Shown here one piece after another: positions 1 to 63,576 of a stretch of 64,000 bases of DNA. A program made the translations under genes and the position numbers. Below the pieces are notes generated by a model, which saw nothing but the letters and a program-made list of their open reading frames with translations, had not been told where the DNA came from and did no database searches. Source of the stretch: a virus; the IMG/VR virus record IMGVR_UViG_3300025133_000033; one strand, 5' to 3'. The first letter of the stretch is position 1, and the number at the start of each line of letters is the position of its first letter.

Positions 1-49
1 GCAAAACAAAACAATAGGAGCAGTGCCGCCATTGAGCCAGCCTCCTTAA

Positions 50-418
50 TTAATGTAGAAGATCAATCCTACCTTTCTCTAGCACTTCTTTCAAAGGAGC
101 TGTCTTGCCGTTAGTATGGTTCGTGACAATTCCCTTTTTGAAATCGTATGTGCGAATCCTTGGAGTGTTTTTAATCTTATCGTCGCGTCTCGCCTTCTTC
201 TCTGCTGCCTGCTGCTCGTCTTGTTGTTCTTTTATTTTTTCCTCGATACGCTTAAGAGCTATGCGATGATTCTGCTTGCGGGTACGCTGTTCGTCTATCT
301 CCACCTTTAGTCCTGTGGGGATATGAACAATCCTACATCCTGTCTCTACCTTATTCTTATTCTGACCACCAGGGCCTTTCCCTTTGTAGTAAGAAATCTT
401 TAGGTCTTTCTTATTCAT
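50..418 (-). CDS. Stand-alone class I release factor GGQ domain (ArfB/PrfH-like peptidyl-tRNA hydrolase)
   Basis: GPGGQNKNKVETGCRIVHIPTG and C-terminal RIRTYDF; only 122 aa, so no codon-recognition domain. Confidence 0.85.
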   Translation of the reverse strand: MNKKDLKISYYKGKGPGGQNKNKVETGCRIVHIPTGLKVEIDEQRTRKQNHRIALKRIEEKIKEQQDEQQAAEKKARRDDKIKNTPRIRTYDFKKGIVTNHTNGKTAPLKEVLEKGRIDLLH

Positions 419-685: not shown

Positions 686-757
686 TGGACAGTACGGGAC
701 TCGAACCCGTAAAACCAGCTTGCAAGGCTAGGATGATCCCAATTTCATCAACCGCCC
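686..757 (-). tRNA. tRNA-Ala(TGC)
   Basis: Cloverleaf; anticodon arm CTAGC-CTTGCAA-GCTGG; G3:U70; T-loop TTCGAGT. Confidence 0.9.
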
Positions 758-768
758 ATGATTGACAG

Positions 769-841
769 TGGGGCCGGTGGGAATCGAGCCCACATTGCCT
801 TGATTAAAAGTCAAGTACATTACCTTATCTGTCACAGCCCC
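769..841 (-). tRNA. tRNA-Lys(TTT)
   Basis: CTTGA-CTTTTAA-TCAAG; acceptor GGGGCTG/CGGCCCC; 5' end overlaps the stop of ORF 832..1056. Confidence 0.85.
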
Positions 842-1056
842 GTAATAAATGCCTGAATCCTACCGCTTAGGTCTGGCATTCCATCGTTTGCAGCCTCGTC
901 TCTGAGTTCGACGAGCAAGTCCTTTAGTTCAGATAGCTCGTTGCGTCCTAGCTGAGCTAGATGACAATTCTGCGGATCATCACCATTAAAACCACCTCTT
1001 ATAATTGCTTCAAGTACCCAGATAGCATGTTCCATTAATAAACCTCGTGATGACAT
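832..1056 (-). CDS. hypothetical protein
   Basis: ORF in co-oriented gene run. Confidence 0.5.
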   Translation of the reverse strand: MSSRGLLMEHAIWVLEAIIRGGFNGDDPQNCHLAQLGRNELSELKDLLVELRDEAANDGMPDLSGRIQAFITGL

Positions 1057-1433
1057 TCATCGTCTTCTTTATTATACACTTTACAGTAGTATTCTTCGTC
1101 GATTATTTGATGCTCAGACCATGCCCCGTCTTCACAAATCTCATAACCGCACTTGGCACAGTTAATTCTTATGTAGTCGAGCGGATTAGAACCAGAAATA
1201 TCTGTTGTCCCCATCAGCCCTACTAGCCATTCTATCTTCTTTTGATCATCAGATAAAACTTCTAGGTCGTCCCAATCAAGCTCGCCACGGATCTCGGGGT
1301 GCTTGCCTAAAGCCTCTCCAAAATAAACTATTTCTCCTACGGCCCGCTCTACATCCTCTTCTTCGGCAACAAACAACCCATGTATATCACCGTGTCTTCC
1401 GCAGTCCCAATGAAACTTGTACAGTTTCTTCAT
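1035..1433 (-). CDS. hypothetical phage protein (C-terminal CxxC)
   Basis: 132-aa ORF with AAGGA RBS. Confidence 0.65.
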   Translation of the reverse strand: MKKLYKFHWDCGRHGDIHGLFVAEEEDVERAVGEIVYFGEALGKHPEIRGELDWDDLEVLSDDQKKIEWLVGLMGTTDISGSNPLDYIRINCAKCGYEICEDGAWSEHQIIDEEYYCKVYNKEDDECHHEVY

Positions 1434-5302: not shown

Positions 5303-6021
5303 GAGAATCTCTTTGTGTAAGTGGCAGTATCTAAGTCTTTGTTAGGAGTCTCTTGAAGAATCGAAACACCGTAAGGTTTTCTAATGAGCTTAATATTCTG
5401 AGCTACTAGATGCCATAGTAAAATATTTTCAACTTGAAGATAACAGCCTTGCTCAAGATAGCTATATAGATTATCTAATATTCCACAATGATACTTCTTC
5501 ATCTGTAGTTCAGATCCTACAGCAAAAACATCGCATAGACCACCCTTCCAGTTTCCAAATTGAGGAATAAGAATTCCACGTCCATATTCTCCTACTGGAG
5601 GCAAGGCATGATCTAGCTGATGAGATAGTAATATCCTATCTCTATACCTAACCACATAGTCATAGTTGTATAATGAATGTTTCTCGAATGTTTTATATAC
5701 ACGGTCTAGCTTATAGAGCGTTGAAACCGTACTGATAGGATTTGACTCTGGCCACTTATCATAGTGTGTCTTTTGAAGATCTAGCATAGCCTCTTGTGAT
5801 TTGGCGGTGACTTTCTCTAGGCTCTCTACATCTATATGAACAGGCTGATAAAGTTCAGTAAATTCTTCCACATCTTCGGACTCATAGGTGCTAACATATA
5901 GATCTACCTCAAGATCGTTGTCTCCATGCCTACAAGATTGCAGGATAGCCCCCCTATAATTTGACCATGTGCGTCTGAAGTCACGAATGCCTCCAGCCCA
6001 CAAGACTGCTACCTTTGTCAT
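5299..6021 (-). CDS. putative glycosyltransferase-like protein
   Basis: KVAVLWAGGIRDF, YDYVVRYRD, CDVFAVG; start moved to the ATG overlapping the upstream stop. Confidence 0.55.
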   Translation of the reverse strand: MTKVAVLWAGGIRDFRRTWSNYRGAILQSCRHGDNDLEVDLYVSTYESEDVEEFTELYQPVHIDVESLEKVTAKSQEAMLDLQKTHYDKWPESNPISTVSTLYKLDRVYKTFEKHSLYNYDYVVRYRDRILLSHQLDHALPPVGEYGRGILIPQFGNWKGGLCDVFAVGSELQMKKYHCGILDNLYSYLEQGCYLQVENILLWHLVAQNIKLIRKPYGVSILQETPNKDLDTATYTKRFS

Positions 6022-6749
6022 AAGTTTGTGTTCCGTTGAAAATACTGAAGATCTTCCGGTGTACCAAGCCCCCACATCTTAGCCGCTTCAGAAGTACGTA
6101 TGATCTTCCCATCAGAGATAGCCTCATTAAATACGGGACATACATAGAACTCTCCGTTCACCGTAAGATTCTTCTCTATCATTTGTTGAGCATATTTAAT
6201 ATAATCCCATGCTCTTTTCCAGTAGTAGATACCTGCTGTAGCATTGGTACTGATAGGTCTTTTCTCTGCTACCTCAACCACCCTTCCCTTGCTATCCAGT
6301 CTGGCATAGCTCCATTTAGGATGAACTGATTGAAAAGTTAGCATTCCCCCATCAGCATTCTCTTCCTCCATCTCTTCAATAAAGTAGGCTAAGCCTCTCC
6401 ATTCTACAAGCTGATCAGTATTAGCAATAACAAGAGGTTGCTTCTCTACTAGATGTGGCTTTGCGAGCAGAGTAGTACATGCTGCTCCAGCAGTGAGACC
6501 ATTAACTAATACTACCTGCATTGTAGTGTTGATAGGGATAATACGCTTTAGCATTTCTTTTATATGATATTTTTTTTCATGCTCTGCCCGAACAAGAAAG
6601 ATGTAGTTCGCATAGGGATAAGTGAGATTGTTTACCACTGCCTGGATCATAGGCACTCCATGACCGACCTCGATTAAAGGTTTGGGGAATGTGTATCCCG
6701 CAGATTTAAAACGGCTTCCCTCACCAGCCATAGGGATCACAATATTCAT
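6018..6749 (-). CDS. sugar nucleotidyltransferase (dTDP-glucose pyrophosphorylase-like)
   Basis: IPMAGEGSRF...PKPLI, VAEKRPIS, GLGTPEDL. Confidence 0.9.
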   Translation of the reverse strand: MNIVIPMAGEGSRFKSAGYTFPKPLIEVGHGVPMIQAVVNNLTYPYANYIFLVRAEHEKKYHIKEMLKRIIPINTTMQVVLVNGLTAGAACTTLLAKPHLVEKQPLVIANTDQLVEWRGLAYFIEEMEEENADGGMLTFQSVHPKWSYARLDSKGRVVEVAEKRPISTNATAGIYYWKRAWDYIKYAQQMIEKNLTVNGEFYVCPVFNEAISDGKIIRTSEAAKMWGLGTPEDLQYFQRNTNL

Positions 6750-26144: not shown

Positions 26145-27020
26145 TTAATAACCAAACTCGTCGTAGCTATCATCATCATCATAGCTATCGTCGTAATCAT
26201 CATCATCATCGTCATCATACTCGTCACCTTCATCGGTGGCAAGAGTATAGGCTAGTTCGCCTTCGTAATCCTTAACTACATAGTACTCTTCAGTCCTTAG
26301 TTTCTGACAGTCAGAACATAGAGGAACCGAAACAACATGCATCGGATTAATCTTGACGATGATACATTTATCAGAAGTCTCGGTAAAGCTGAGATCTCCT
26401 TCGTCGTCCTTTTGAAAACTTCCAAAAGATTCAACATACGATAGAGTACCGGCATGAAGACCTCTGGAGCATCCGTTCTCACGATTGTCGTCAATCTTAC
26501 GACGAGCCTCATTCACTGTCGAACCTACGCTATTGTCCTTGGTGCCAGTCCTCTTGTCTCTATAGTCACAAGTAACTGCCTTATACGCAAGGAAGTCGCC
26601 GTCTTCACAGATGGGCAGACTACGATGGTCTAGAAAGTCGTACAGTTCCTTGGCCGACTGATAGCTAGGGTTCTGCATTATCTTCTTGATAAAATTAACC
26701 AGACCTTGCACAGGAAGATCCTCCTTAACAAAATCTAGCAGACGATCAATCATAGTTCCATGAATGGGCTCTTCGTCGCCATCTTCGTCAGTATAGACAA
26801 CTTCGCCGTTCTCTACACGAAGACTTTCATCTTGAATAGACAGATAGCTCTGCACTCGTGCAGACCGATCAATGATATCCACAAGATCGTCTTCTGTAGC
26901 ACCTTCTCGTAGTGCGTCCAAGGCTTTAGGATGAGCCTCGTCAGTTACACTAACGTAATACTGGCGATGGTTCAATACCAAGCTAAGATTACCACTTCCA
27001 TCTTTTGTCCACGCAACCAT
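26145..27020 (-). CDS. rIIB: rIIB-like protein
   Basis: NPS...ELYDFL...DGDFLAYKAV...CSRGLHAG...VKINP..VVSVP. Confidence 0.9.
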   Translation of the reverse strand: MVAWTKDGSGNLSLVLNHRQYYVSVTDEAHPKALDALREGATEDDLVDIIDRSARVQSYLSIQDESLRVENGEVVYTDEDGDEEPIHGTMIDRLLDFVKEDLPVQGLVNFIKKIMQNPSYQSAKELYDFLDHRSLPICEDGDFLAYKAVTCDYRDKRTGTKDNSVGSTVNEARRKIDDNRENGCSRGLHAGTLSYVESFGSFQKDDEGDLSFTETSDKCIIVKINPMHVVSVPLCSDCQKLRTEEYYVVKDYEGELAYTLATDEGDEYDDDDDDDYDDSYDDDDSYDEFGY

Positions 27021-27022
27021 GA

Positions 27023-29062
27023 TTATTCTCCAGAGTGTAAAGTTGCCAAATCTAACATATTAATAGTATCCACCAACATTGATGAATGCGAAGAAAGTTG
27101 CCAGTCTCCAATCTCGTCAAGGAAAGAGATTAAGATAGGGTATCTTTCTCTTACTGCGTCTTCCAACTCTTCAACTTTAATCGAGTCTTTCTTGTATTCA
27201 AAATTATACCCCGCTAGACTCGCAAGAGATACAAAAGAGCTGACAAAATTATCAGTTTTTACATTTTTTAAATCCTTCGTATAGTCAGCCAAGAGCTTAG
27301 CAGGGCTGTTTGGGTCGATGAACTCCCCTCCGCCAGCAATAGTGCATAGCCGTTTTCCTAGACCCATGATGCCCAATGCGTACATATTGGAGGCACGCTC
27401 TTGAAGGTTGTCTCCATCCAACTCTGCCAGTTCCGCCTTAATCCAGTCTCGGAAATGAATAAAGTTCGACTTGTTAGACAGCTTACTTGTTTGGTTATTA
27501 AGCCCGATAATATCTGGAACATCCAAGCCTAAAGAAACGCATTCGTTTCTAGCACTATGAACGTTAAAGTCCATATCATATCTGTCCAGGTTAATATACA
27601 CCTGATCCTCAGACACATCAATTTCGCACTCAGTATCCCAGTATCGAGACTCATAGACGTTACTACGAGTTGAACTGTTCCCTTTAGGACAATACCCTTT
27701 TACTGTTCTAGTGGTCTTTCTAACACGAGACCCACGAGCCGCTGGTGCAGGCTTAGGTAGCTCACTAGACAGGAAGACAACATTGTCGGGCTCTGTAGCA
27801 CCAACCGCTGTCAGGGCCTCAGCCTTTGTTATTCCTTTTACTAGATAAACAAAAAGGTCCGAATCAGTGCTTGCCAAAAGACGACAGGCTTTATCAAACC
27901 CACGCTCCTCGTCTTGAATTACAATCTTAGAGTAGGGAGATACTGGACAACTATTCTTATATTCCAGAGTATTCCTTTTAACCTTGGTTCCAGTACCAAC
28001 GCCGCTATACTTGAATCTCCAGGTAGCCTCAAGCTCTATGCTCTTAACAATGTCCCACTTCGAAGAAGAGAAGTCAAGGTTAAGATTAGTAAGCTTAGTT
28101 CTCCACCTTTTAGCAAGTAGAGAGGCATCCCACTGGCTTTCGCATTCGTCTAACTGCTTAGTTACTTGTATTCCTACTTCACTAGCAATCTCTTCACAAC
28201 GACGCTTAATTGTCGCAATTGTTTCGTCGTTGTATTCTAATTGCTCACGAGAGGGAGTCATATGAACCTCTCCCATGTCAACAGTGAAGTGAACACCTTT
28301 ATCTAAGATCTTCTCTGCAACGCTGCCATATGGCATCTGACTTGAATTAACAGGATAAGCAATGTTACCCATAACCACATACGATCTCTCATAACTCCCA
28401 GTCATATACCAAGAGTCACCTTCAAGAGTTTTTTCGTATGTCTTAAGAGCAAATTCATCGCTCCCATTAACTACAGGTGAAGTAGAGAAGAACGAATAGA
28501 CATGCTCTGCCGACTTGCGGAAGCGGGTATGGTCATCTTCTTTTACAGCAAAAGAAATCTCAACCCCATTAGGTTCGTCCGTTGGATGTTCACCGTACAC
28601 ATTGAGTTCTGGAATACCAGACTCATTGTAGCACATAGTGTACATTCGTAGGCAACCATCAATGTAGGTTGTCACATTGAAGCTGTCGCTGTATGCGAGA
28701 GGAGTCTTAGACCCGATACCAAAGTATCCAGTTTCATCATTGGTATGCTGCTTGTCAGACTTCATGTACTCTGCGTACACGTTTCTCATAGTGTCTGGAG
28801 ACATACTCACACCAAAGTCACGAATCCGCAAATGAGGATCGAGCTGAGTGGGTAACTGGACACGAAACGGAGTATCGTTAATCTCCGCCCGATAATGGGA
28901 ATCCATCGCATTGGCACCCAACTCTTGCAGGATCGCTTTAATAGGATCAGAGTATTGGCGTGCCAACATTTTAAAAGAATGGGCAGTTGGTGCCAGACCG
29001 CAAGTAATGCGTTCTACGATACCATGTCGTTCAATATCGTTCGGCGTGTTTTGAACTTTCAT
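27023..29062 (-). CDS. rIIA: rIIA-like protein (N-terminal GHKL ATPase)
   Basis: YSDP...EL.ANA.DSH, IRDFGVSM, GYFGIGSKTPLAYSDSF, VVMGNIAYP; adjacent to rIIB. Confidence 0.9.
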   Translation of the reverse strand: MKVQNTPNDIERHGIVERITCGLAPTAHSFKMLARQYSDPIKAILQELGANAMDSHYRAEINDTPFRVQLPTQLDPHLRIRDFGVSMSPDTMRNVYAEYMKSDKQHTNDETGYFGIGSKTPLAYSDSFNVTTYIDGCLRMYTMCYNESGIPELNVYGEHPTDEPNGVEISFAVKEDDHTRFRKSAEHVYSFFSTSPVVNGSDEFALKTYEKTLEGDSWYMTGSYERSYVVMGNIAYPVNSSQMPYGSVAEKILDKGVHFTVDMGEVHMTPSREQLEYNDETIATIKRRCEEIASEVGIQVTKQLDECESQWDASLLAKRWRTKLTNLNLDFSSSKWDIVKSIELEATWRFKYSGVGTGTKVKRNTLEYKNSCPVSPYSKIVIQDEERGFDKACRLLASTDSDLFVYLVKGITKAEALTAVGATEPDNVVFLSSELPKPAPAARGSRVRKTTRTVKGYCPKGNSSTRSNVYESRYWDTECEIDVSEDQVYINLDRYDMDFNVHSARNECVSLGLDVPDIIGLNNQTSKLSNKSNFIHFRDWIKAELAELDGDNLQERASNMYALGIMGLGKRLCTIAGGGEFIDPNSPAKLLADYTKDLKNVKTDNFVSSFVSLASLAGYNFEYKKDSIKVEELEDAVRERYPILISFLDEIGDWQLSSHSSMLVDTINMLDLATLHSGE

Positions 29063-29128: not shown

Positions 29129-29356
29129 TCAACCCGTACTGGGAAAAATTTTTACGTATTCTTCATTTACTTCGTCTGAGTCAATTTTTTGGGTATCGGG
29201 ATGCACACCAAAACCCTGCTCTGATACCCAGTAGTGCCCGCCAACCATAATCGTTGAAAAACGAAATAGATGTAAAGCTTTAGCACAGGCAACAACTGGA
29301 TTATCAGCCTCTACGATAGTAGTCTCTTTACCGTCTCGGATATAATACTTAGGCAT
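29129..29356 (-). CDS. hypothetical protein (MPKYYI...)
   Basis: Likely start at the MPKYY Met overlapping the end of the sigma gene. Confidence 0.55.
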   Translation of the reverse strand: MPKYYIRDGKETTIVEADNPVVACAKALHLFRFSTIMVGGHYWVSEQGFGVHPDTQKIDSDEVNEEYVKIFPSTG

Positions 29357-30158
29357 GAGACAATTCCTTCCTTGCCTGAGCCGCTTCCTTAACAGCCTTC
29401 TTAGTTTTACGAATAGTCTTTCCAACTTCCTGAACAGAACTATCTAAGTCCTCAGCAGTTAATCGGGTCTTGTTATTCTTATGGATATAACGCAACCAGT
29501 GGAAGAAGGTCTCCTTCTCGCTTTCGTCCTCAACTGTTTCTTCTACTAACTCAATCAACTCTGCTAAGCAACCATCTATATTAGTTCTGGTATCAGACTC
29601 CAACGCCTCCTGGTTATGAAGCCTCATATTCAGTACTGTATAGTCGATTCTCTTTGAAGACATGATACGCATCAATAGCTTGATACGCTTTACAGTCAAC
29701 CCTGTACTCTTGCGGATAGTCTCAATATCCTCACTGCCAGAGTCTCTGATTTTCTTCATGTCGTCGCAGGACTGACGACTCATTTCAAACTTATTTTTAA
29801 TTGAATACTTACTTTCTTTGATCATATCAATCAAAGAGTTACGAACATACCAAGTCGCTACTGTACTCAACTTTGCTCGACTAATATCCCATCCATCAAC
29901 TGCACGAATCAAAGCAATGTTTCCATGCTGAATCATATCTTCCAGGTCGATGTGTCGGTTATTCTTTCGAAACTTTTGAGCAAGGTCGTAAACCAGCGGC
30001 AAGCAGCTCGCAATCAATTGATCTCGGGCTACTTGATCTCCTTCCTTCATCTTGTCATACAATATGCGGTGGTCTGAACTTTTCACTTGGCTATATGCGG
30101 TGGTAAGGTCGATTTTGTATTGATCTGTCATGACGATCTCCTTTAGTTTTGTGAGCAA
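29349..30158 (-). CDS. sigma70-family RNA polymerase sigma factor
   Basis: ARDQLI..CLPLV, DLEDMIQHGNIALIRAVDGWD, STVATWYVR (region 2). Confidence 0.85.
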   Translation of the reverse strand: MLTKLKEIVMTDQYKIDLTTAYSQVKSSDHRILYDKMKEGDQVARDQLIASCLPLVYDLAQKFRKNNRHIDLEDMIQHGNIALIRAVDGWDISRAKLSTVATWYVRNSLIDMIKESKYSIKNKFEMSRQSCDDMKKIRDSGSEDIETIRKSTGLTVKRIKLLMRIMSSKRIDYTVLNMRLHNQEALESDTRTNIDGCLAELIELVEETVEDESEKETFFHWLRYIHKNNKTRLTAEDLDSSVQEVGKTIRKTKKAVKEAAQARKELSHA

Positions 30159-31037: not shown

Positions 31038-31061
31038 AGCTTTTCTCTATTAAAAGTAAAG

Positions 31062-31143
31062 TGTGCCGAGAGGGATTCGAACCCCCAACGTTTCTTTGTA
31101 ACTGATTTACAGTCAGCGTGCTTCACCATTTGCATATCGACAC
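31062..31143 (-). tRNA. tRNA-Tyr(GTA)
   Basis: GCTGA-CTGTAAA-TCAGT, long variable arm. Confidence 0.88.
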
Positions 31144-56888: not shown

Positions 56889-56940
56889 TATAAGATCTTT
56901 ATGGTGATGTCGGCCAGGGCCAGTCTAACTCAAAATGTGT

Positions 56941-57135
56941 TGGTGGGTCAGCAGGAGTCGAACCCGCATTGGCACCGTCCACCTGTTGCTGTTGACCTTA
57001 GTGCTCCCGCACTGCAAGGAGTTGATCACCCTCCGAGCTGTCAACGAACGGAAGGGTGGATAGCCCTTCCAACAACGAACGATACTGGATACCACGTATC
57101 AGCCACCCGCTTTGTTGCGGATAACCTATGCACCC
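56941..57135 (-). ncRNA. ~195-nt tRNA-shelled RNA, copy 1
   Basis: T arm GCGGG-TTCGACT-CCTGC, encoded CCA; covaries with 58209..58402. Confidence 0.8.
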
Positions 57136-57260
57136 AAATTGTATTGTTGGAAGTTTCTGTTTTGTTATGCGGATCAACTTCCTAAGAAACCGCTTCGTCA
57201 ACTTGCTTAATGTACACTTGACAAGTCAACAGGCTTTGTGGGGGAATTTAGCCCCGAACC

Positions 57261-57629: not shown

Positions 57630-57930
57630 AAGCGAACAAAATAAAAACTTTTTTATAAGTCGTTGGTATCAAAGGGTTTAGGTCGTGCCAAAACTTTTCT
57701 TCAAAACCCCCCCTTTGTCAAGAAGTGTAGTCAGTTTGTGAGCAATTCTGAAAATCTTGTCGTAAGTCGTTGTGTGGTATAGGGTTACAGCGATTCTCAT
57801 TTTGGGACCAGATTCTCATTTTGGGATTGGCACGATATTTGCAGTAAAAAATCGTCGTAAGTCGTTGGTATGAAAGGACTTAGGGCATCGCCGGGCCGGG
57901 CGTCGATGTAACCCCTTGGTATCAAAGGGC

Positions 57931-58038
57931 TTACGTTAAGGCGTACGCTATAAGAATAATAGCAGTCGTGCCGAGGAACATCACGGCGGCGGGTATGATG
58001 AGAACCTCAGTAATAAAGAAAACAATAGCACGCAACAT
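57931..58038 (-). CDS. 35-aa hydrophobic membrane peptide MLRAIVFFITEVLIIPAAVMFLGTTAIILIAYALT
   Basis: GAGG RBS; same-length homolog at 62354..62461. Confidence 0.7.
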   Translation of the reverse strand: MLRAIVFFITEVLIIPAAVMFLGTTAIILIAYALT

Positions 58039-58129
58039 GTCAAGTACCTCTAGAAAGTGTCAAGTATAATCAGTACATCGCGGCCAATCTGGTATTACGC
58101 CGATTCGAGGGGATTTCTCCAGTCCCCTT

Positions 58130-58141
58130 TTAGTAGCCCAT
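58130..58141 (-). CDS. Met-Gly-Tyr minigene
   Basis: AGGAGG-N9-ATG GGC TAC TAA; conserved at 62572..62583 with synonymous GGA. Confidence 0.55.
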   Translation of the reverse strand: MGY

Positions 58142-58208
58142 TGGTTTTATCCTCCTCATGTTGAAACTGCTAACCCGTCTATCAGAGTCAGCCAAACTTG
58201 TCATGTAT

Positions 58209-58402
58209 TGGCAGGCGTGTCGAGAGTCGAACTCGAATTGGTCTAACCACTTGTTGACGTTTTGCTGCGATGCTCCCGCACCAAAAGGGCTGTACACACC
58301 CTTTGCAGCTAACTAAGGTAGGCTGGATAAGCCTACCGACAACGGTTAAACTGGATACCAAATATCAGCCACCCGCTTTGCTGCGGGCTAGCTTACACAC
58401 CC
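58209..58402 (-). ncRNA. ~195-nt tRNA-shelled RNA, copy 2
   Basis: GGGTGTG/CACGCCT-G-CCA; TCGAG-TTCGACT-CTCGA. Confidence 0.8.
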
Positions 58403-59697
58403 AGATTGTATTGTTGGGCGGCGGCTAGGTCGCTCGTTAGGCCACCATTCCAGGCGGCACCCATTTGTTTTAACCCGTTCAATCTAACCTGCGGGTTCAT
58501 GTACCCTGCGGAAGACTTTTGAACGACCCAGCGTTTTTTATCAACGACTTACGCAATCGGAACGGATGTCTTTTTGTATTGTGGCGGGGGTTAACCCGCT
58601 TGCCATGTTTTCAGTTATACTATAAATCTTGCCGTTGTCAAGCCCGAATATGAAATACTTTTTCAACTCGGTAAGTATATTCGCTTTCTTCCTCTCTGGT
58701 TAATTTGGCCCATGCCTCATTTGCCGCTTTCTCAGTCTCGTAACTTACGATGATTGAGTTACCTTGGCTTCCCCTGTTAAAATCCATAACGATGACATAG
58801 TTCATAGCTCTGTTTCCTTGGTGGCGTTGTGTTTTGTATTACTGAATTATAGCATAGGTGGCGGGTTGTGTCAACACCTAAAAGCGAATATTTTCACCAT
58901 TATGGCAGCGAATCCCCAGGACAGCATTACCCGCCCACTGGGTTAGGCGAAGATACTTCTCCTCCTTAGTTTCATGCCACTTGGCACGATATTCAGAAGC
59001 AAGACGCATAGCCTTATCCATATCATAGCCTAGCTTTTCAGCGGCCTCCAATGCTTTGGCTTTGCGGTGGTCGTGAATACGTTGGGCTAAAATGTAACTC
59101 ATAAAAACTCTTTCTAAAATTAGCAAGGCGATTCAGTCTCAGGTGAGCTACTCGAATTTTTCGAGTCCAGTAAGCCTTGCTTTCTATAGTATATATAATG
59201 CACTATTCGTGCCAAACTAGAGAAAATTGAAATTTAGTCGTAAGTCGTTGATACGAAAGGACTTAAGGCGTGCCAAAACATCTTCTCAAAACCCCTCCTT
59301 TGTCAAGAAGTGTCGTCAATTTGTGAGCGATTTTGAAAATCTTGCTGTAAGTTATTGGTATGTATAGAGTTACGGCCATTCCCAAATCGAGACTCGATTC
59401 TCATTTTGGGATTGGCACGGTATTTGCAGTAAAAAATCGTCGTAAGTCGTTGGTATGAAAGGACTTAGGGCATCGCCGGGCCGGGCGTCGATGTAACTCC
59501 TTTGGCAGTAAGGGTTTACGTCGATTTCTTTCGGGGGGTGCAGTCCATGTCTGTATGGGTATAAAAAAACCCCCCTGGAGCTTGGTTCGCCACAAACCGC
59601 TCGACAGGGGGGCACCACAACGTAAGATTTTATTTTTTTAATAATCCATTAAAACCCTTTCCCCAGATTGTATTCCTCGGCATTTAATTGTTTCTGC

Positions 59698-60096
59698 CTA
59701 GTATTTGTAACACACCCGATCTTCTAGGTCTTCAGCGTCGATCACGCCACCGCTAATCATACCCCCCACAAAGACCTGTTCATTTCGGTACAGCTTATCT
59801 GCATTAACATCATAGGTGATGTGGACTTCCTCTTGTCCGGTCTTGAACTCGATCAACTGAGCCTCCACTTGGGCACGATATGCGGCGATACGCTTGGCCT
59901 TTTCTGCCTTGAGTTGGGCACGCTCGACGCTCGCTTCCACTTCCCGATTGTAGACCTTGTTGATCCCGTCCAGGGTTCGCCCGCCCGACTTGTTATCGTG
60001 GTAGCGTTCGGGGAGCATGGAATTGGGAACGAAGATAGCATCATTCAGAGTCAGGGTGATTTCTTCTAGTAGCTCGTATCCAGTTTTGGTCGTCAT
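59698..60096 (-). CDS. hypothetical protein
   Basis: Own promoter, AAGGA RBS. Confidence 0.65.
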   Translation of the reverse strand: MTTKTGYELLEEITLTLNDAIFVPNSMLPERYHDNKSGGRTLDGINKVYNREVEASVERAQLKAEKAKRIAAYRAQVEAQLIEFKTGQEEVHITYDVNADKLYRNEQVFVGGMISGGVIDAEDLEDRVCYKY

Positions 60097-60764
60097 GGCG
60101 ATTTCCTTTATGTGGCGTATGTTGTTTCTTATACTCTTATTGTACCAAGTGATCTGAGAATGTCAACCCCTAGCACCGATTATTTCGAAAATACTTTAGA
60201 TTCGCAACAATCGGTTACAATCGAGTGCCCCGAAAATGGCAGGGTCTTAACTTCGAATTTCATATTAGGATCTTTGTGGGTATAGCTTACCCCCACGGTG
60301 CATTGTGTCTTACACCCGATAGAACTAGAAACGAGCAAGCCAGCAATGAGAGCGATGGTGATGTAGATGTACTTTTTCATAGTTTTTCCTTTATGTTGAT
60401 TGCCTTATCCTATACTATATATATCGGCATGTCAACCCCAATCCATTAACAAAACCCAAATAAATACGAAATACTTTTGGCACGGTATTTGCGTCAAAAA
60501 TCGTCGTAAGTCGTTGCTACCAAAGGAGTTAGGGCGAGCCGCCGCCGCCCGTCGTCGTAAGTCCTTACGTACCAAGGGGTTACGTCGATAATTTGAAGAC
60601 GGTTTCAATGCCGGATACGACAAGGCTAGAATAGTCCTTATAGCTATCAAGTAGCTGGCTAATAGCGTGGACTTCGTTCTCCGCTTCAAAGTCGCAGAAC
60701 TGTACAAACGTCAACTTGTCGTCGCGGCACAATTCCTGATAAGTTACGCGAAATTTAGACATTT

Positions 60765-61016
60765 TTATCCCTCATATCCAAAGTCGTAGTCCATCCCGTC
60801 ATAATCGTCATAAAAGCCATAGGATTCGTCGCATTCGCAGAAGTCGTCCAACTCCTGACGTTCGAGCTGCAAGTCACGATGATACTCCACCATGTCGTCA
60901 GCCGCCCCCTCACAGATAGCACAGATCTCTACGTCGTGGGCGACTAGGGAGCCGCAGTCCTCACAGGTCCACACGCCAGCCATGATACGCGAGTCGATTT
61001 CTTGCTTTTCACACAT
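60765..61016 (-). CDS. acidic Zn-ribbon protein; paralog of 61902..62129
   Basis: MCEK...DSR...W.CEDCG.LV...DFCECDESYG. Confidence 0.7.
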   Translation of the reverse strand: MCEKQEIDSRIMAGVWTCEDCGSLVAHDVEICAICEGAADDMVEYHRDLQLERQELDDFCECDESYGFYDDYDGMDYDFGYEG

Positions 61017-61901
61017 AATAAAAATCCTTGGGGGAACGTGGTGGTTATGCTTCAATTATAACAAGTGTTTGGCGGGTGTCAACCCTATCCCGATAAAATT
61101 CTCAAAGTTTTTTAAAACTCTGAGGCTGTCGGCTGATCGTTGTGCTGTTCAACGAACTGGTTGAATTCGAGCGTCCACCTATGTGGGTGGCTCACTATCC
61201 CCACGATCTCATCAGCTCGCCAACCCTCATCGGCTAGGTGGCTGAGGAACATGGCGAAACCTTCGGTCGTGAGCGTGAGTCCGGTAGTTGTCTTGAGCAT
61301 TTTGCTTCCTTAGCAAGTGGCGTTTAGTACTCTTCCATTATACATAGTATCGGTCGTTTGTCAACAACAAAACCACTAAATACCGAAATAAACCCGAAAT
61401 ACTTTTGGCACGATATTTGCAGTAAGATTTCGTCGTAAGTCCTTTCATACCAACGACTTACATCGACGCCGGGCGGGTGGCCCACCTAAGTCCTTATATA
61501 CCAAGGGTTTACGTCGAATCATTTTCCTTTTTTAGCTACACATACAGGTGCCCCAATCAACACAACACGTACTAGTCCACACTTGACACAATGAACACCA
61601 TACCATATCACCCCCACAGGAATGACAGTATTCGTCCCCTTCCTCATAATCATTTGGCTTATCGTCGTCGTACATCGTATTTCCCTTTCCTTTACTTTAT
61701 TATAGCATATGTTCCAACTGGAGTCAACCCCTAAACCCGCGTGCCAGAAACTCGCGTGCAATGTATGTAGAGGCGACAGGCGACCGAGAAGCTACTATGG
61801 GTAGTACAGTCCCCCCATTAGTAGGGCATCACCTCATCAGGAAGGTAACGGCTGATCCAACTATTCGGAAATTCCTAATAGTTCGCCAACTTTAAGATTT
61901 T

Positions 61902-62129
61902 CTACCATTCGTCCCCCCCATAGCAACCATAGGACTCATCACATTCGCAGAAGTCCTCCCGCTCCTGAGATTCGAGCATCTCATCACGAGCCATTTCCGC
62001 CGACCATTCCTCATCGACGCAACAGCATTCCTCCACGCTATTGGGCACGAGAGCCCCACAATCCTCACACACCCAAGCGTCACCAAGGAAAGATTCGCGG
62101 GAATCGACGTTAGCTTTTTTTTCACACAT
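61902..62129 (-). CDS. acidic Zn-ribbon protein; paralog of 60765..61016
   Basis: Same motifs. Confidence 0.7.
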   Translation of the reverse strand: MCEKKANVDSRESFLGDAWVCEDCGALVPNSVEECCCVDEEWSAEMARDEMLESQEREDFCECDESYGCYGGDEW

Positions 62130-62353
62130 GACATAAGCTCCTGAACACGTTGCGTTTAGTACTCCCTCATTATAGTATATATCGGCATCTTGTCAACATC
62201 TAAATCAACAAAATCACAAAGAAACCCAAAATACTTTTGGCACGATATTTGCGTAAGGAATCGTCGTAAGTCCTTTGATACCAAGGGGTTAGGGCGAGCC
62301 CCAGCCGGTCGTCGCCGTAAGTCCTTTGATACCAACGAGTTACGTCGAAAAAT

Positions 62354-62461
62354 TTAGGAGATTAGCACGGCCAGTACTAGTACGGATAGCGTACCCACGA
62401 ATAGTACTAGAGCGGGGATAACGAAAACTTGCGTCAAAAAAGAAATAATATCACTAATCAT
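62354..62461 (-). CDS. 35-aa hydrophobic membrane peptide MISDIISFLTQVFVIPALVLFVGTLSVLVLAVLIS
   Basis: Homologous to 57931..58038. Confidence 0.7.
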   Translation of the reverse strand: MISDIISFLTQVFVIPALVLFVGTLSVLVLAVLIS

Positions 62462-62571
62462 GTCAAGTACCTTGGAAAAGTGTCAAGTATTAGTCTGATT
62501 CGATAGCTAAGCTATCTCGGCACCCTTACGGATTATGGTGCCTTTTATAGGGGGCTGAGTCCGCTCCCCTT

Positions 62572-62583
62572 TTAGTATCCCAT
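62572..62583 (-). CDS. Met-Gly-Tyr minigene, copy 2
   Basis: AGGAGG-N9-ATG GGA TAC TAA. Confidence 0.55.
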   Translation of the reverse strand: MGY

Positions 62584-63312
62584 TGGCTTTGTCCTCCTAT
62601 GTTGGTTGTCGTTGTTTTGTATGGTTTAATTATACCATGTTGTCGATTGGTGTCAACCCCATTCGCAGTTACTTTTCTGGTTTGTTCAGAAAGTTTTCGT
62701 ATAGCCCCTGATAAGGGGGTACTGGCTTAGGGAAAGCACAAGCACCATGGAACACCACAGCACCGGGAACAGGCTTACTGCAAGGCTTACCGCATAAGCC
62801 GCAGTTTCCAGAACCTTTTTCTTTGTGTTCCCAAACGTGTGGTTTTCGTGGCATGATGTTTTTCCTTAGTGGCGTTGTTTTGTATAATTGAATTGTAGCA
62901 GATTAGTTGGTTGCTGTCAACCCCTGATAGCAGATTATTAGAACATTTCTCATCATGCTCTCGAAATCAGCATAGGATACAATCCCGCACCCATTGGTAT
63001 CGAATAGCACGTCAACAGCTACGTCCATACCATAGCGGTCGATTGCAATGAAGCAATCATTAATGGTAAGATCGCAACGGGCGAGAGTGTCATTTGTGTC
63101 AATCATCATAATTCCTTAGTAACCTTGTTTAGTACTCCCTCATTATACATAGTATCGGCAATTTGTCAACACCAAAACCACTAAAATCACAAATTAGTCC
63201 AAAATACTTTTGGCACGGTATTTGCGTAAAAAATCGTCGTAAGTCCTTTGATACCAACGGGTTAGGGCGAGCCGCCGCCGGTTTTCGTCGTAAGTCCTTT
63301 GATACCAACGAG

Positions 63313-63525: not shown

Positions 63526-63576
63526 TATAAGATCTTTATGGTGATGTCGGCCAAGGCCAGTCTAATTTGTCAAGTA

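Follow-up and report, generated by a model that had tools for sequence, protein, structure and literature searches.

Two related cassettes in the early region of a marine phage

The window analysed here, 64,000 nucleotides (nt) of IMG/VR virus record IMGVR_UViG_3300025133_000033, derives from a large uncultured marine phage and contains two minus-strand cassettes with a common and unusual architecture. In each, a Shine-Dalgarno sequence (SD) and a three-codon open reading frame (ORF), hereafter the mini-gene, in the arrangement AGGAGG-N9-ATG GGN TAC TAA, are followed by a GGGG/CCCC hairpin, a doubled nonamer (TACTTGACA-N11-TACTTGACA), and a 35-codon ORF encoding a hydrophobic peptide. Comparison of the two copies with each other and with related contigs leads to the tentative proposal that the mini-gene is a translated leader acting in cis on a lineage-specific membrane peptide gene. 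The features of copies A and B, and of the repeats behind them, are as follows.

58151-58156, minus strand: copy A SD AGGAGG, 9 nt ahead of the mini-gene start
58130-58141, minus strand: copy A mini-gene ATG GGC TAC TAA (Met-Gly-Tyr-stop)
58108-58128, no strand assigned: copy A hairpin AGGGGA/TCCCCT, 1 nt past the stop, with a T-run (58128-58131) on the plus strand only
58038-58066, minus strand: copy A doubled TACTTGACA, with the peptide SD GAGG between the repeats and the second repeat ending on the A of the ATG
57931-58038, minus strand: copy A 35-codon gene for a hydrophobic, single-helix peptide (substitution rates against contig L193 are given below)
57850-57930, minus strand: generic repeat after peptide A, with paired dyads and a long hairpin, then a T-run (minus-strand terminator)
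57828-57842, plus strand: sigma54-like TGGCACG-N4-TTGC, part of the generic repeat, antisense toward peptide A
62629-62656, minus strand: copy B sigma70 promoter, consensus TTGACA-N16-TATAAT, followed by the ATACAAAACAAC leader, directly upstream of the mini-gene
62593-62598, minus strand: copy B SD AGGAGG
62572-62583, minus strand: copy B mini-gene ATG GGA TAC TAA, with an in-frame TAG five codons upstream
62519-62570, no strand assigned: copy B, two hairpins (AGGGG../..CCCCT and GGCACC/GGTGCC), with TTTT after each one, solely on the plus strand
62461-62489, minus strand: copy B doubled TACTTGACA around the peptide SD AAGG, abutting the ATG
62354-62461, minus strand: copy B 35-codon paralogous peptide gene
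62258-62353, minus strand: generic repeat after peptide B, with a long hairpin (-33.5 kcal/mol, z -3.1)
62238-62252, plus strand: sigma54-like motif of that repeat, antisense toward peptide B

The SD-N9-mini-gene pattern occurs exactly twice in the window, compared with 0.04 occurrences expected by chance, and the doubled nonamer with its 11-nt spacer occurs twice against an expectation of 0.05. Together with the likeness of the encoded peptides, these counts indicate that the two copies did not arise by chance. Only three blocks stand out when copies A and B are aligned: the core comprising SD, mini-gene, and hairpin stem; the doubled motif with the adjoining start codon; and the generic repeat that follows the ORF. 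The 34-nt core, from SD to hairpin, is identical at 31 positions, compared with 54% identity for the ORF (P about 3e-6). Identity extends to 25 of 29 positions in the doubled motif, with the two nonamers themselves matching at all 18. On both sides of the core the flanks are unalignable between copies, as is the spacer between hairpin and doubled motif. A first-pass annotation of this DNA had described two homologous cassettes with a synonymous GGC/GGA change in the mini-gene, a hairpin after it, and a doubled motif; each of these elements is present in both cassettes on the minus strand, and homology is borne out by the core, by the motif, and by the peptides, which share 13 of 31 residues.

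The mini-gene varies as a translated ORF would

Five independent versions of the mini-gene were compared, drawn from the window and related contigs: winA and winB (copies A and B), L001/L189, L188, and L193. The AGGAG is kept in all five, and four of the nine positions in the spacer between SD and start vary. TAC TAA is unchanged throughout, and the AGGGG/CCCCT stem is likewise invariant. The glycine codon is either GGC or GGA, differing in the wobble base only, and the start codon is ATG in four versions and TTG in the fifth (L001/L189), both usable starts. Such variation matches what would be expected of a translated three-codon ORF.

The position of the mini-gene is also that of a leader ORF. 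It has its own SD and lies on the same strand as the peptide gene, 91-110 nt upstream, with its own promoter in copy B, and no minus-strand terminator was found between the two genes. As the first element of the peptide module it appears in three different upstream contexts, behind a tRNA-like RNA (winA, L001, L188), behind a promoter and the ATACAAAACAAC leader (winB), and behind the end of a 98-codon gene (L193). In copy B, where the promoter matches the consensus, this places it at an ordinary gene-start position.

Two ways of joining the mini-gene to a longer product were considered and rejected. Read-through of its stop would produce extended frames that are not conserved between the copies. 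A bypass of the T4 gene 60 type, from the UAC-UAA-hairpin to the UAC of the repeats, was discarded because the landing site is out of frame with the peptide and is followed immediately by TGA in copy B.

The downstream ORF encodes a new membrane peptide

The substitution pattern identifies the 35-residue ORF as a real coding gene, as the first-pass annotation had claimed in describing homologous hydrophobic peptides. Between winA and L193, 17 synonymous and 5 non-synonymous changes were counted, corresponding to a proportion of synonymous differences (pS) of 0.66 and of non-synonymous differences (pN) of 0.06 (pN/pS about 0.1). The paralogues winA and winB are more distant (pS 0.71, pN 0.39); their third codon positions are identical at 12 of 36 sites (33%, near random), compared with 30 of 36 second positions, and their peptides are similar at 25 of 31 residues. 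Among the five distinct alleles in the window and related contigs, every intact one is exactly 35 codons long. The invariant residues are I5, F8, I15-P16-A17, V19, F21, G23-T24, and A31, and the composition is almost wholly hydrophobic and fits one membrane helix.

Searches for relatives outside the lineage returned very little. There was no match by tblastn against the phage collection, no hit to a Pfam or PHROG family, and no relative in the ESM Atlas (scores <=0.84), and a search of 1.84 billion representative proteins recovered nothing beyond the peptide and a chimeric form from L002. Scans of viral contigs with the back-translated peptide yielded nothing new, the window holds no third copy, and none of the searches, including those of Pfam and PHROG, revealed similarity to a known toxin family. 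By these comparisons the peptide is a new family, restricted to one phage lineage and duplicated in one genome. It is probably a membrane-acting early protein involved in host takeover or exclusion, and its restricted distribution, duplication, and strong purifying selection make it a good candidate for such a factor.

The chimeric form was seen in L002 / L191 (positions 1-200, plus strand), where the doubled motif of copy A and the first 18 peptide codons run into unrelated, GC-richer sequence. The junction yields a 42-codon hybrid ORF and reflects either a recombinant or an assembly chimera.

The doubled motif as a putative initiation element

The doubled motif is identical in winA and L193 despite near-saturated synonymous sites in the adjoining gene. 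It is unusually unstructured, with minimum free energies of -1.1 kcal/mol (z +2.0) in copy A and -2.4 kcal/mol (z +1.45) in copy B, and it folds worse than all or nearly all shuffled sequences, as open initiation regions do. Every doubled motif has an SD (GAGG or AAGG) between the repeats, and the second repeat ends at the ATG or 2 nt before it. A related contig, G001, contains a second doubled motif with a 10-nt spacer, directly after a 43-codon Arg-rich ORF and in front of a 58-codon gene for an unrelated, non-hydrophobic (soluble) protein, which indicates that the motif is a module separable from the peptide.

An operator or enhancer of initiation is suggested by the SD between the repeats, the ATG at their end, and the lack of structure, and also because a -10 element would fall on the ATG; for this last reason a sigma70 promoter for the peptide gene was rejected. 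A search of viral contigs for doubled TACTTGACA matched 47 loci, of which the related ones were only L001, L002, and L152 (two contigs, same lineage), the others being unrelated tandem arrays. Bacterial genome contigs gave no match.

Hairpins and sigma54-like motifs face the opposite strand

The hairpin stem begins one base past the mini-gene stop, so that a terminating ribosome would open it. As RNA, the copy A hairpin is more stable when read from the plus strand (-12.2 kcal/mol, z -2.5) than from the minus strand (-8.8 kcal/mol), and by sequence the hairpins look like plus-strand intrinsic terminators. Such a function would explain the invariant TAA-A run but would leave the SD and the start, which lie beyond the T-run, unexplained. 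With T-runs on the plus strand only, there is room for an antisense RNA of the type I toxin-like kind. A long-range fold that hides the peptide SD was considered and rejected, as whole-leader folds are shuffle-like and differ between the copies.

The first-pass annotation had also pointed to a plus-strand sigma54 motif directed into each peptide gene (57828 and 62238). The motifs are there, on that strand, and carry the GG/GC feature of sigma54 promoters at -24/-12, but they belong to the generic repeats. TGGCACG-N4-TTGC occurs at ten plus-strand sites between 50025 and 63225, nine of them exact and one (50025) with a single mismatch. Each intergenic repeat has one, at a constant place, where it forms the best-conserved block and otherwise only its spacer varies; each opposes the gene strand and lies about 45 nt from a sigma70 -35 element. 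Since only two of the ten face a peptide gene, and eight face unrelated genes, the motif is not specific to the cassettes. If these motifs were active, the early genes would receive antisense transcription.

A model for the cassette and its alternatives

Based on these comparisons, a simple model would describe each cassette as a modular early-gene unit whose payload is the 35-residue, single-helix membrane peptide. The first module would consist of the strong SD, the three-codon ORF (Met or Leu start, Gly, Tyr, UAA), and the hairpin abutting its stop. Ribosomes would load onto and translate this mini-ORF, which would act in cis, occupying and protecting the 5' portion of the mRNA and thereby raising or gating expression of the peptide. 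The second module, the doubled TACTTGACA, would be read in trans, by a protein or an RNA, as an operator or enhancer of translation initiation. Neither the sigma54-like motif nor the long hairpin that follows the peptide gene is counted in the cassette; both belong to the region's terminator/promoter repeats, which resemble the PeSL elements discussed below. The conserved minus-strand features appear to be most economically explained by a leader mini-ORF that is translated and acts in cis, coupled to an initiation operator distinct from it, and this is put forward as a working model whose chances we place somewhat short of even.

Several observations weigh against this model. Coding-level support for the mini-gene comes down to a single two-state wobble site. 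The TTG form belongs to a high-depth population present in two metagenomes (depth 229-738 versus about 40 for the window form). Two independent assemblies, L190 and L199, have the doubled motif and an intact peptide gene without mini-gene or hairpin, the peptide module being joined directly to a different upstream non-coding region; any leader function must therefore be dispensable, and the mini-gene is not obligatory. From the mini-gene stop to the peptide start there are 91 nt in copy A and 110 nt in copy B, and the relative frames differ. The T-runs of the three distinct hairpins, on the plus strand only, fit a plus-strand terminator better than a minus-strand element. No conserved long-range pairing was found between the mini-gene and the peptide start, and the whole leader folds no better than shuffled sequence, in structures not shared between the copies. 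Finally, recombination is free in this region, as seen in the mosaics L188 and L193 and in many joints, and some of the conservation may stem from recent copying instead of selection. The interpretation given in the first-pass annotation is supported in part: the mini-gene region is conserved well beyond neutral expectation in a manner that would fit translation, with its SD kept, its wobble base varying, and its stop invariant, but not every lineage has it. As to ATG and TAA in homologues, the stop is constant in all five versions, whereas four begin with ATG and the fifth, that of the dominant population, with TTG; one lineage has no mini-gene at all.

Alternatively, the mini-gene may have no function of its own. 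Modular shuffling would have left it behind as the stump of a former gene start, comprising promoter, leader, SD, and ATG with two further codons. Its similarity among copies would then be due to recent copying or gene conversion, and to its TAA and A-run forming the T-tract side of a plus-strand terminator. The normal gene-start position in copy B's promoter/leader module, the rampant recombination among modules, the persistence in two samples of the variant that lacks the mini-gene, and the TTG start of the dominant population would all agree with this, as would the several places in the window where AGGAGG precedes an ORF of one to five codons by chance. A stump would not, however, be expected to retain a core identical at 31 of 34 positions while its flanks become unalignable and the third positions of the ORF are randomised, nor to recur in three unrelated upstream contexts with changes in the spacer and wobble base and never in the stop, the Tyr codon, or the SD; an intact gene bearing the mini-gene's start was also not found in viral contigs. 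We regard this explanation as doubtful, though of appreciable weight. Far less credible is a toxic mini-gene like lambda bar, in which drop-off of Met-Gly-Tyr-tRNA would sequester tRNA-Tyr and thereby sense or poison host translation. The strong SD, three codons, and UAA stop are indeed the lambda bar format, but nothing marks TAC or tRNA-Tyr as limiting, the phage carries its own tRNA-Tyr(GTA) gene (31061-31143), the dominant population has a weaker TTG start, natural variants (L190, L199) dispense with the element, and it never occurs by itself but only in cis with the peptide module. The tRNA-Tyr trap suggested in the first-pass annotation is likewise unlikely and finds no support, with circumstantial evidence (the phage's own tRNA gene, the TTG start, and the deletion variants) against it.

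The remaining alternatives assign the conserved elements to other molecules. In a type I toxin-antitoxin-like unit, a toxic or tightly held membrane peptide would be paired with a plus-strand antisense RNA that starts at the sigma54-like promoter, crosses the ORF and the doubled motif, and stops at the hairpins overlapping the mini-gene stop; pairing over the doubled motif would block initiation, as RNA II does over DRa/DRb of par/Fst. We consider such a unit unlikely but a serious rival, and an antisense layer of this kind would be compatible with a translated leader. The peptide is small, hydrophobic, predicted to lie in the membrane, and under selection, with direct repeats over the place where its translation starts, an arrangement also seen in par (PMC7472228). 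Some 90-115 nt past each peptide stop there is a perfect, inward-pointing TGGCACG-N4-TTGC. Together with the three hairpins, which have TTTT on the plus strand only and of which that of copy A is stronger as plus-strand RNA, it would bracket a transcript of about 280-310 nt. In the L190/L199-type variant, too, a hairpin with T residues after it on the plus strand is found roughly 60 nt ahead of the doubled motif. On the other side, the candidate promoter is generic, with eight of ten copies facing unrelated genes, it would also require an activator ATPase, and a consensus scan found no other conserved plus-strand promoter. A plus-strand terminator also leaves the conservation of SD and start, beyond the T-run, unexplained, and the peptide has neither the PXXXG motif nor the charged tail of Fst/Ldr. 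A combination of all three layers, in which a ribosome-sensing three-codon leader, a doubled 9-mer operator, and a sigma54-driven antisense RNA ending at the leader terminators control a family of membrane-active peptides in a lytic marine phage, has only a slim chance of being right; it would amount to a phage-borne, type I toxin-like switch wired to host sigma54 and to the translation state. Improbable as well is a role of the doubled TACTTGACA on DNA, as an operator or promoter element through which transcription into the peptide gene would be controlled by a factor of phage or host origin, such as the phage-encoded sigma factor or a regulator that binds direct repeats. Each TACTTGACA contains a perfect TTGACA, the 20-bp period would place both repeats on about the same face of the DNA, in copy B the consensus scan picks out TTGACA-18-CATGAT, with a TG upstream, a sigma70-family sigma factor is among the phage's own genes, and lone copies of TACTTGACA or TACATGACA occur at other module borders. 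Yet a -10 paired with the first repeat would lie on or past the ATG and give transcripts without a start codon, the putative -10 is not conserved between the copies, and the motif occurs inside operons directly after upstream ORFs; the fixed SD between the repeats and fixed ATG at their end point instead to an initiation region in RNA.

Should the mini-ORF prove to be translated and to act in cis, the cassette would provide a clean natural phage example of the little-studied leader ORFs of two to six codons, with natural ATG, TTG, and deleted alleles available for comparison. More generally, it would then show that regulatory pieces of only 30-45 nt behave as exchangeable modules in the hyperplastic regions of phages.

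Genomic context and module shuffling

The phage encodes homologues of rIIA and rIIB, a sigma70-family sigma factor, and 17 tRNA genes, and nearly all genes of the window lie on the minus strand. Two of these features bear on the alternatives above.

29349-30158, minus strand: phage-encoded sigma70-family sigma factor, adjoining the rIIA/rIIB homologues (26145-29062)
31061-31143: phage-encoded tRNA-Tyr(GTA) gene

DNA of the window is also present in marine metagenomes from about 18 studies, and no DNA-level match to it, near or distant, was found in the reference phage collection. The cassettes lie in a hyperplastic early region (49-64 kb) of small ORFan genes with a near-consensus sigma70 promoter per gene; a consensus scan found 19 such promoters on the minus strand, each agreeing with the consensus at no fewer than 11 of 12 positions. 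Between the genes lie 9-10 copies of an intergenic repeat of 135-214 nt. Contigs from the population show joints between repeats at 57885/62266, at 60584/61485, and at other sites, and L188, L190, L193, and L199 are mosaic relatives. The many inter-repeat joints indicate that modules are being shuffled.

Single copies of TACTTGACA or TACATGACA sit exactly at other module borders, at 63568-63576 (minus strand), at 58199-58207 (minus strand), and in L193, either right after the stop of the 98-codon gene or right after the CCA of a tRNA-like RNA. The nonamer may mark junctions used in shuffling. The promoter-proximal ATACAAAACAAC leader (62897-62854 and 62634-62600, minus strand, and in G001) begins about 6 nt past the -10 of several early promoters, is followed by an AAGGAA-type SD, and is another exchangeable regulatory module.

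Two paralogous tRNA-like RNAs of about 195 nt are encoded at 58205-58420 and 56938-57155 (both minus strand), and a further one at 5994-6205 (minus strand) of L001; copy A lies about 60 nt downstream of one of them. In each, a large extra domain is surrounded by an acceptor stem of 7 bp, a T-arm with TTCGACT, and a CCA that is encoded, and 21 of 63 predicted pairs show compensatory changes among three compared sequences. Assignment as a tRNA or transfer-messenger RNA was rejected, as neither ARAGORN nor Rfam made a call. Between this RNA and the mini-gene of copy A, at 58165-58192 (minus strand), lies a conserved hairpin, GCTGAC..GTTAGC with loop TCTGATAGACGR. Changes within its stem are compensatory in L188 and L001, and the hairpin may signal 3' processing of the tRNA-like RNA or serve it as a weak terminator. 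In L199 (about 700-1145, plus strand) and L190, an ORF-poor stretch of ~330 nt behind a consensus promoter replaces the tRNA-like RNA. Its ends share short blocks, in changed order, with window positions 58420-58510, and it may be another structured RNA.

Comparison with known systems

The bar mini-genes of lambda are toxic where a rare tRNA coincides with limiting Pth. Like them, the mini-gene is a very short phage ORF, within the range of two to three codons, with an SD and a UAA stop; unlike them, it is tied in cis to a downstream gene, weakened in one population, absent from another, and carried by a phage that supplies the tRNA-Tyr.

In par/Fst, oppositely read RNAs cross two direct repeats on the toxin initiation site, and peptides of the Fst/Ldr family carry a PXXXG(C) motif within the helix and end in a charged tail at the C-terminus (PMC7472228). 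The cassettes share with par/Fst a small hydrophobic peptide, direct repeats over the initiation region, hairpins that are complementary, and perhaps a convergent antisense transcript, but their candidate antisense promoter is generic and of the sigma54 type. Membership of the peptides in Fst/Ldr was rejected, since they have P16 and G23 (P-X6-G) and uncharged C-termini.

The regional architecture is reminiscent of the PeSL cassettes of T4-like phages, in which repeats combining a terminator and an early promoter lie between small ORFan genes and serve as recombination points (PMC2839356, PMC4122927). The 9-10 stem-loop/promoter repeats between small genes, the 19 near-consensus sigma70 promoters, and the inter-repeat joints correspond to this arrangement, in a phage that is itself not established as T4-like. 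In contrast to PeSLs, the repeats of the window are longer (about 135-214 nt), contain paired dyads, and embed a conserved sigma54-type motif on the opposite strand, and the mini-gene and doubled motif are extra modules not described for PeSLs.

The closest parallel to the proposed leader is found in short mini-ORFs with a strong SD whose action in cis targets the genes behind them, among them that of a toxin (PMC8708949). These comprise axe-txe mg2 and LEE1, with two codons each, and LEE4, with six, and action through ribosome occupancy and mRNA protection has been proposed for them (PMC8708949). As in axe-txe, LEE1, and LEE4, the gene that would be regulated has in its 5' leader an ORF of two to six codons preceded by a strong SD of its own; in axe-txe that gene encodes a toxin. 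The cassette differs from these cases in that its ORF has three codons with a conserved hairpin immediately after, is separated from the start of the target gene by 91-110 nt without a constant frame, and belongs to the early region of a lytic-type phage.

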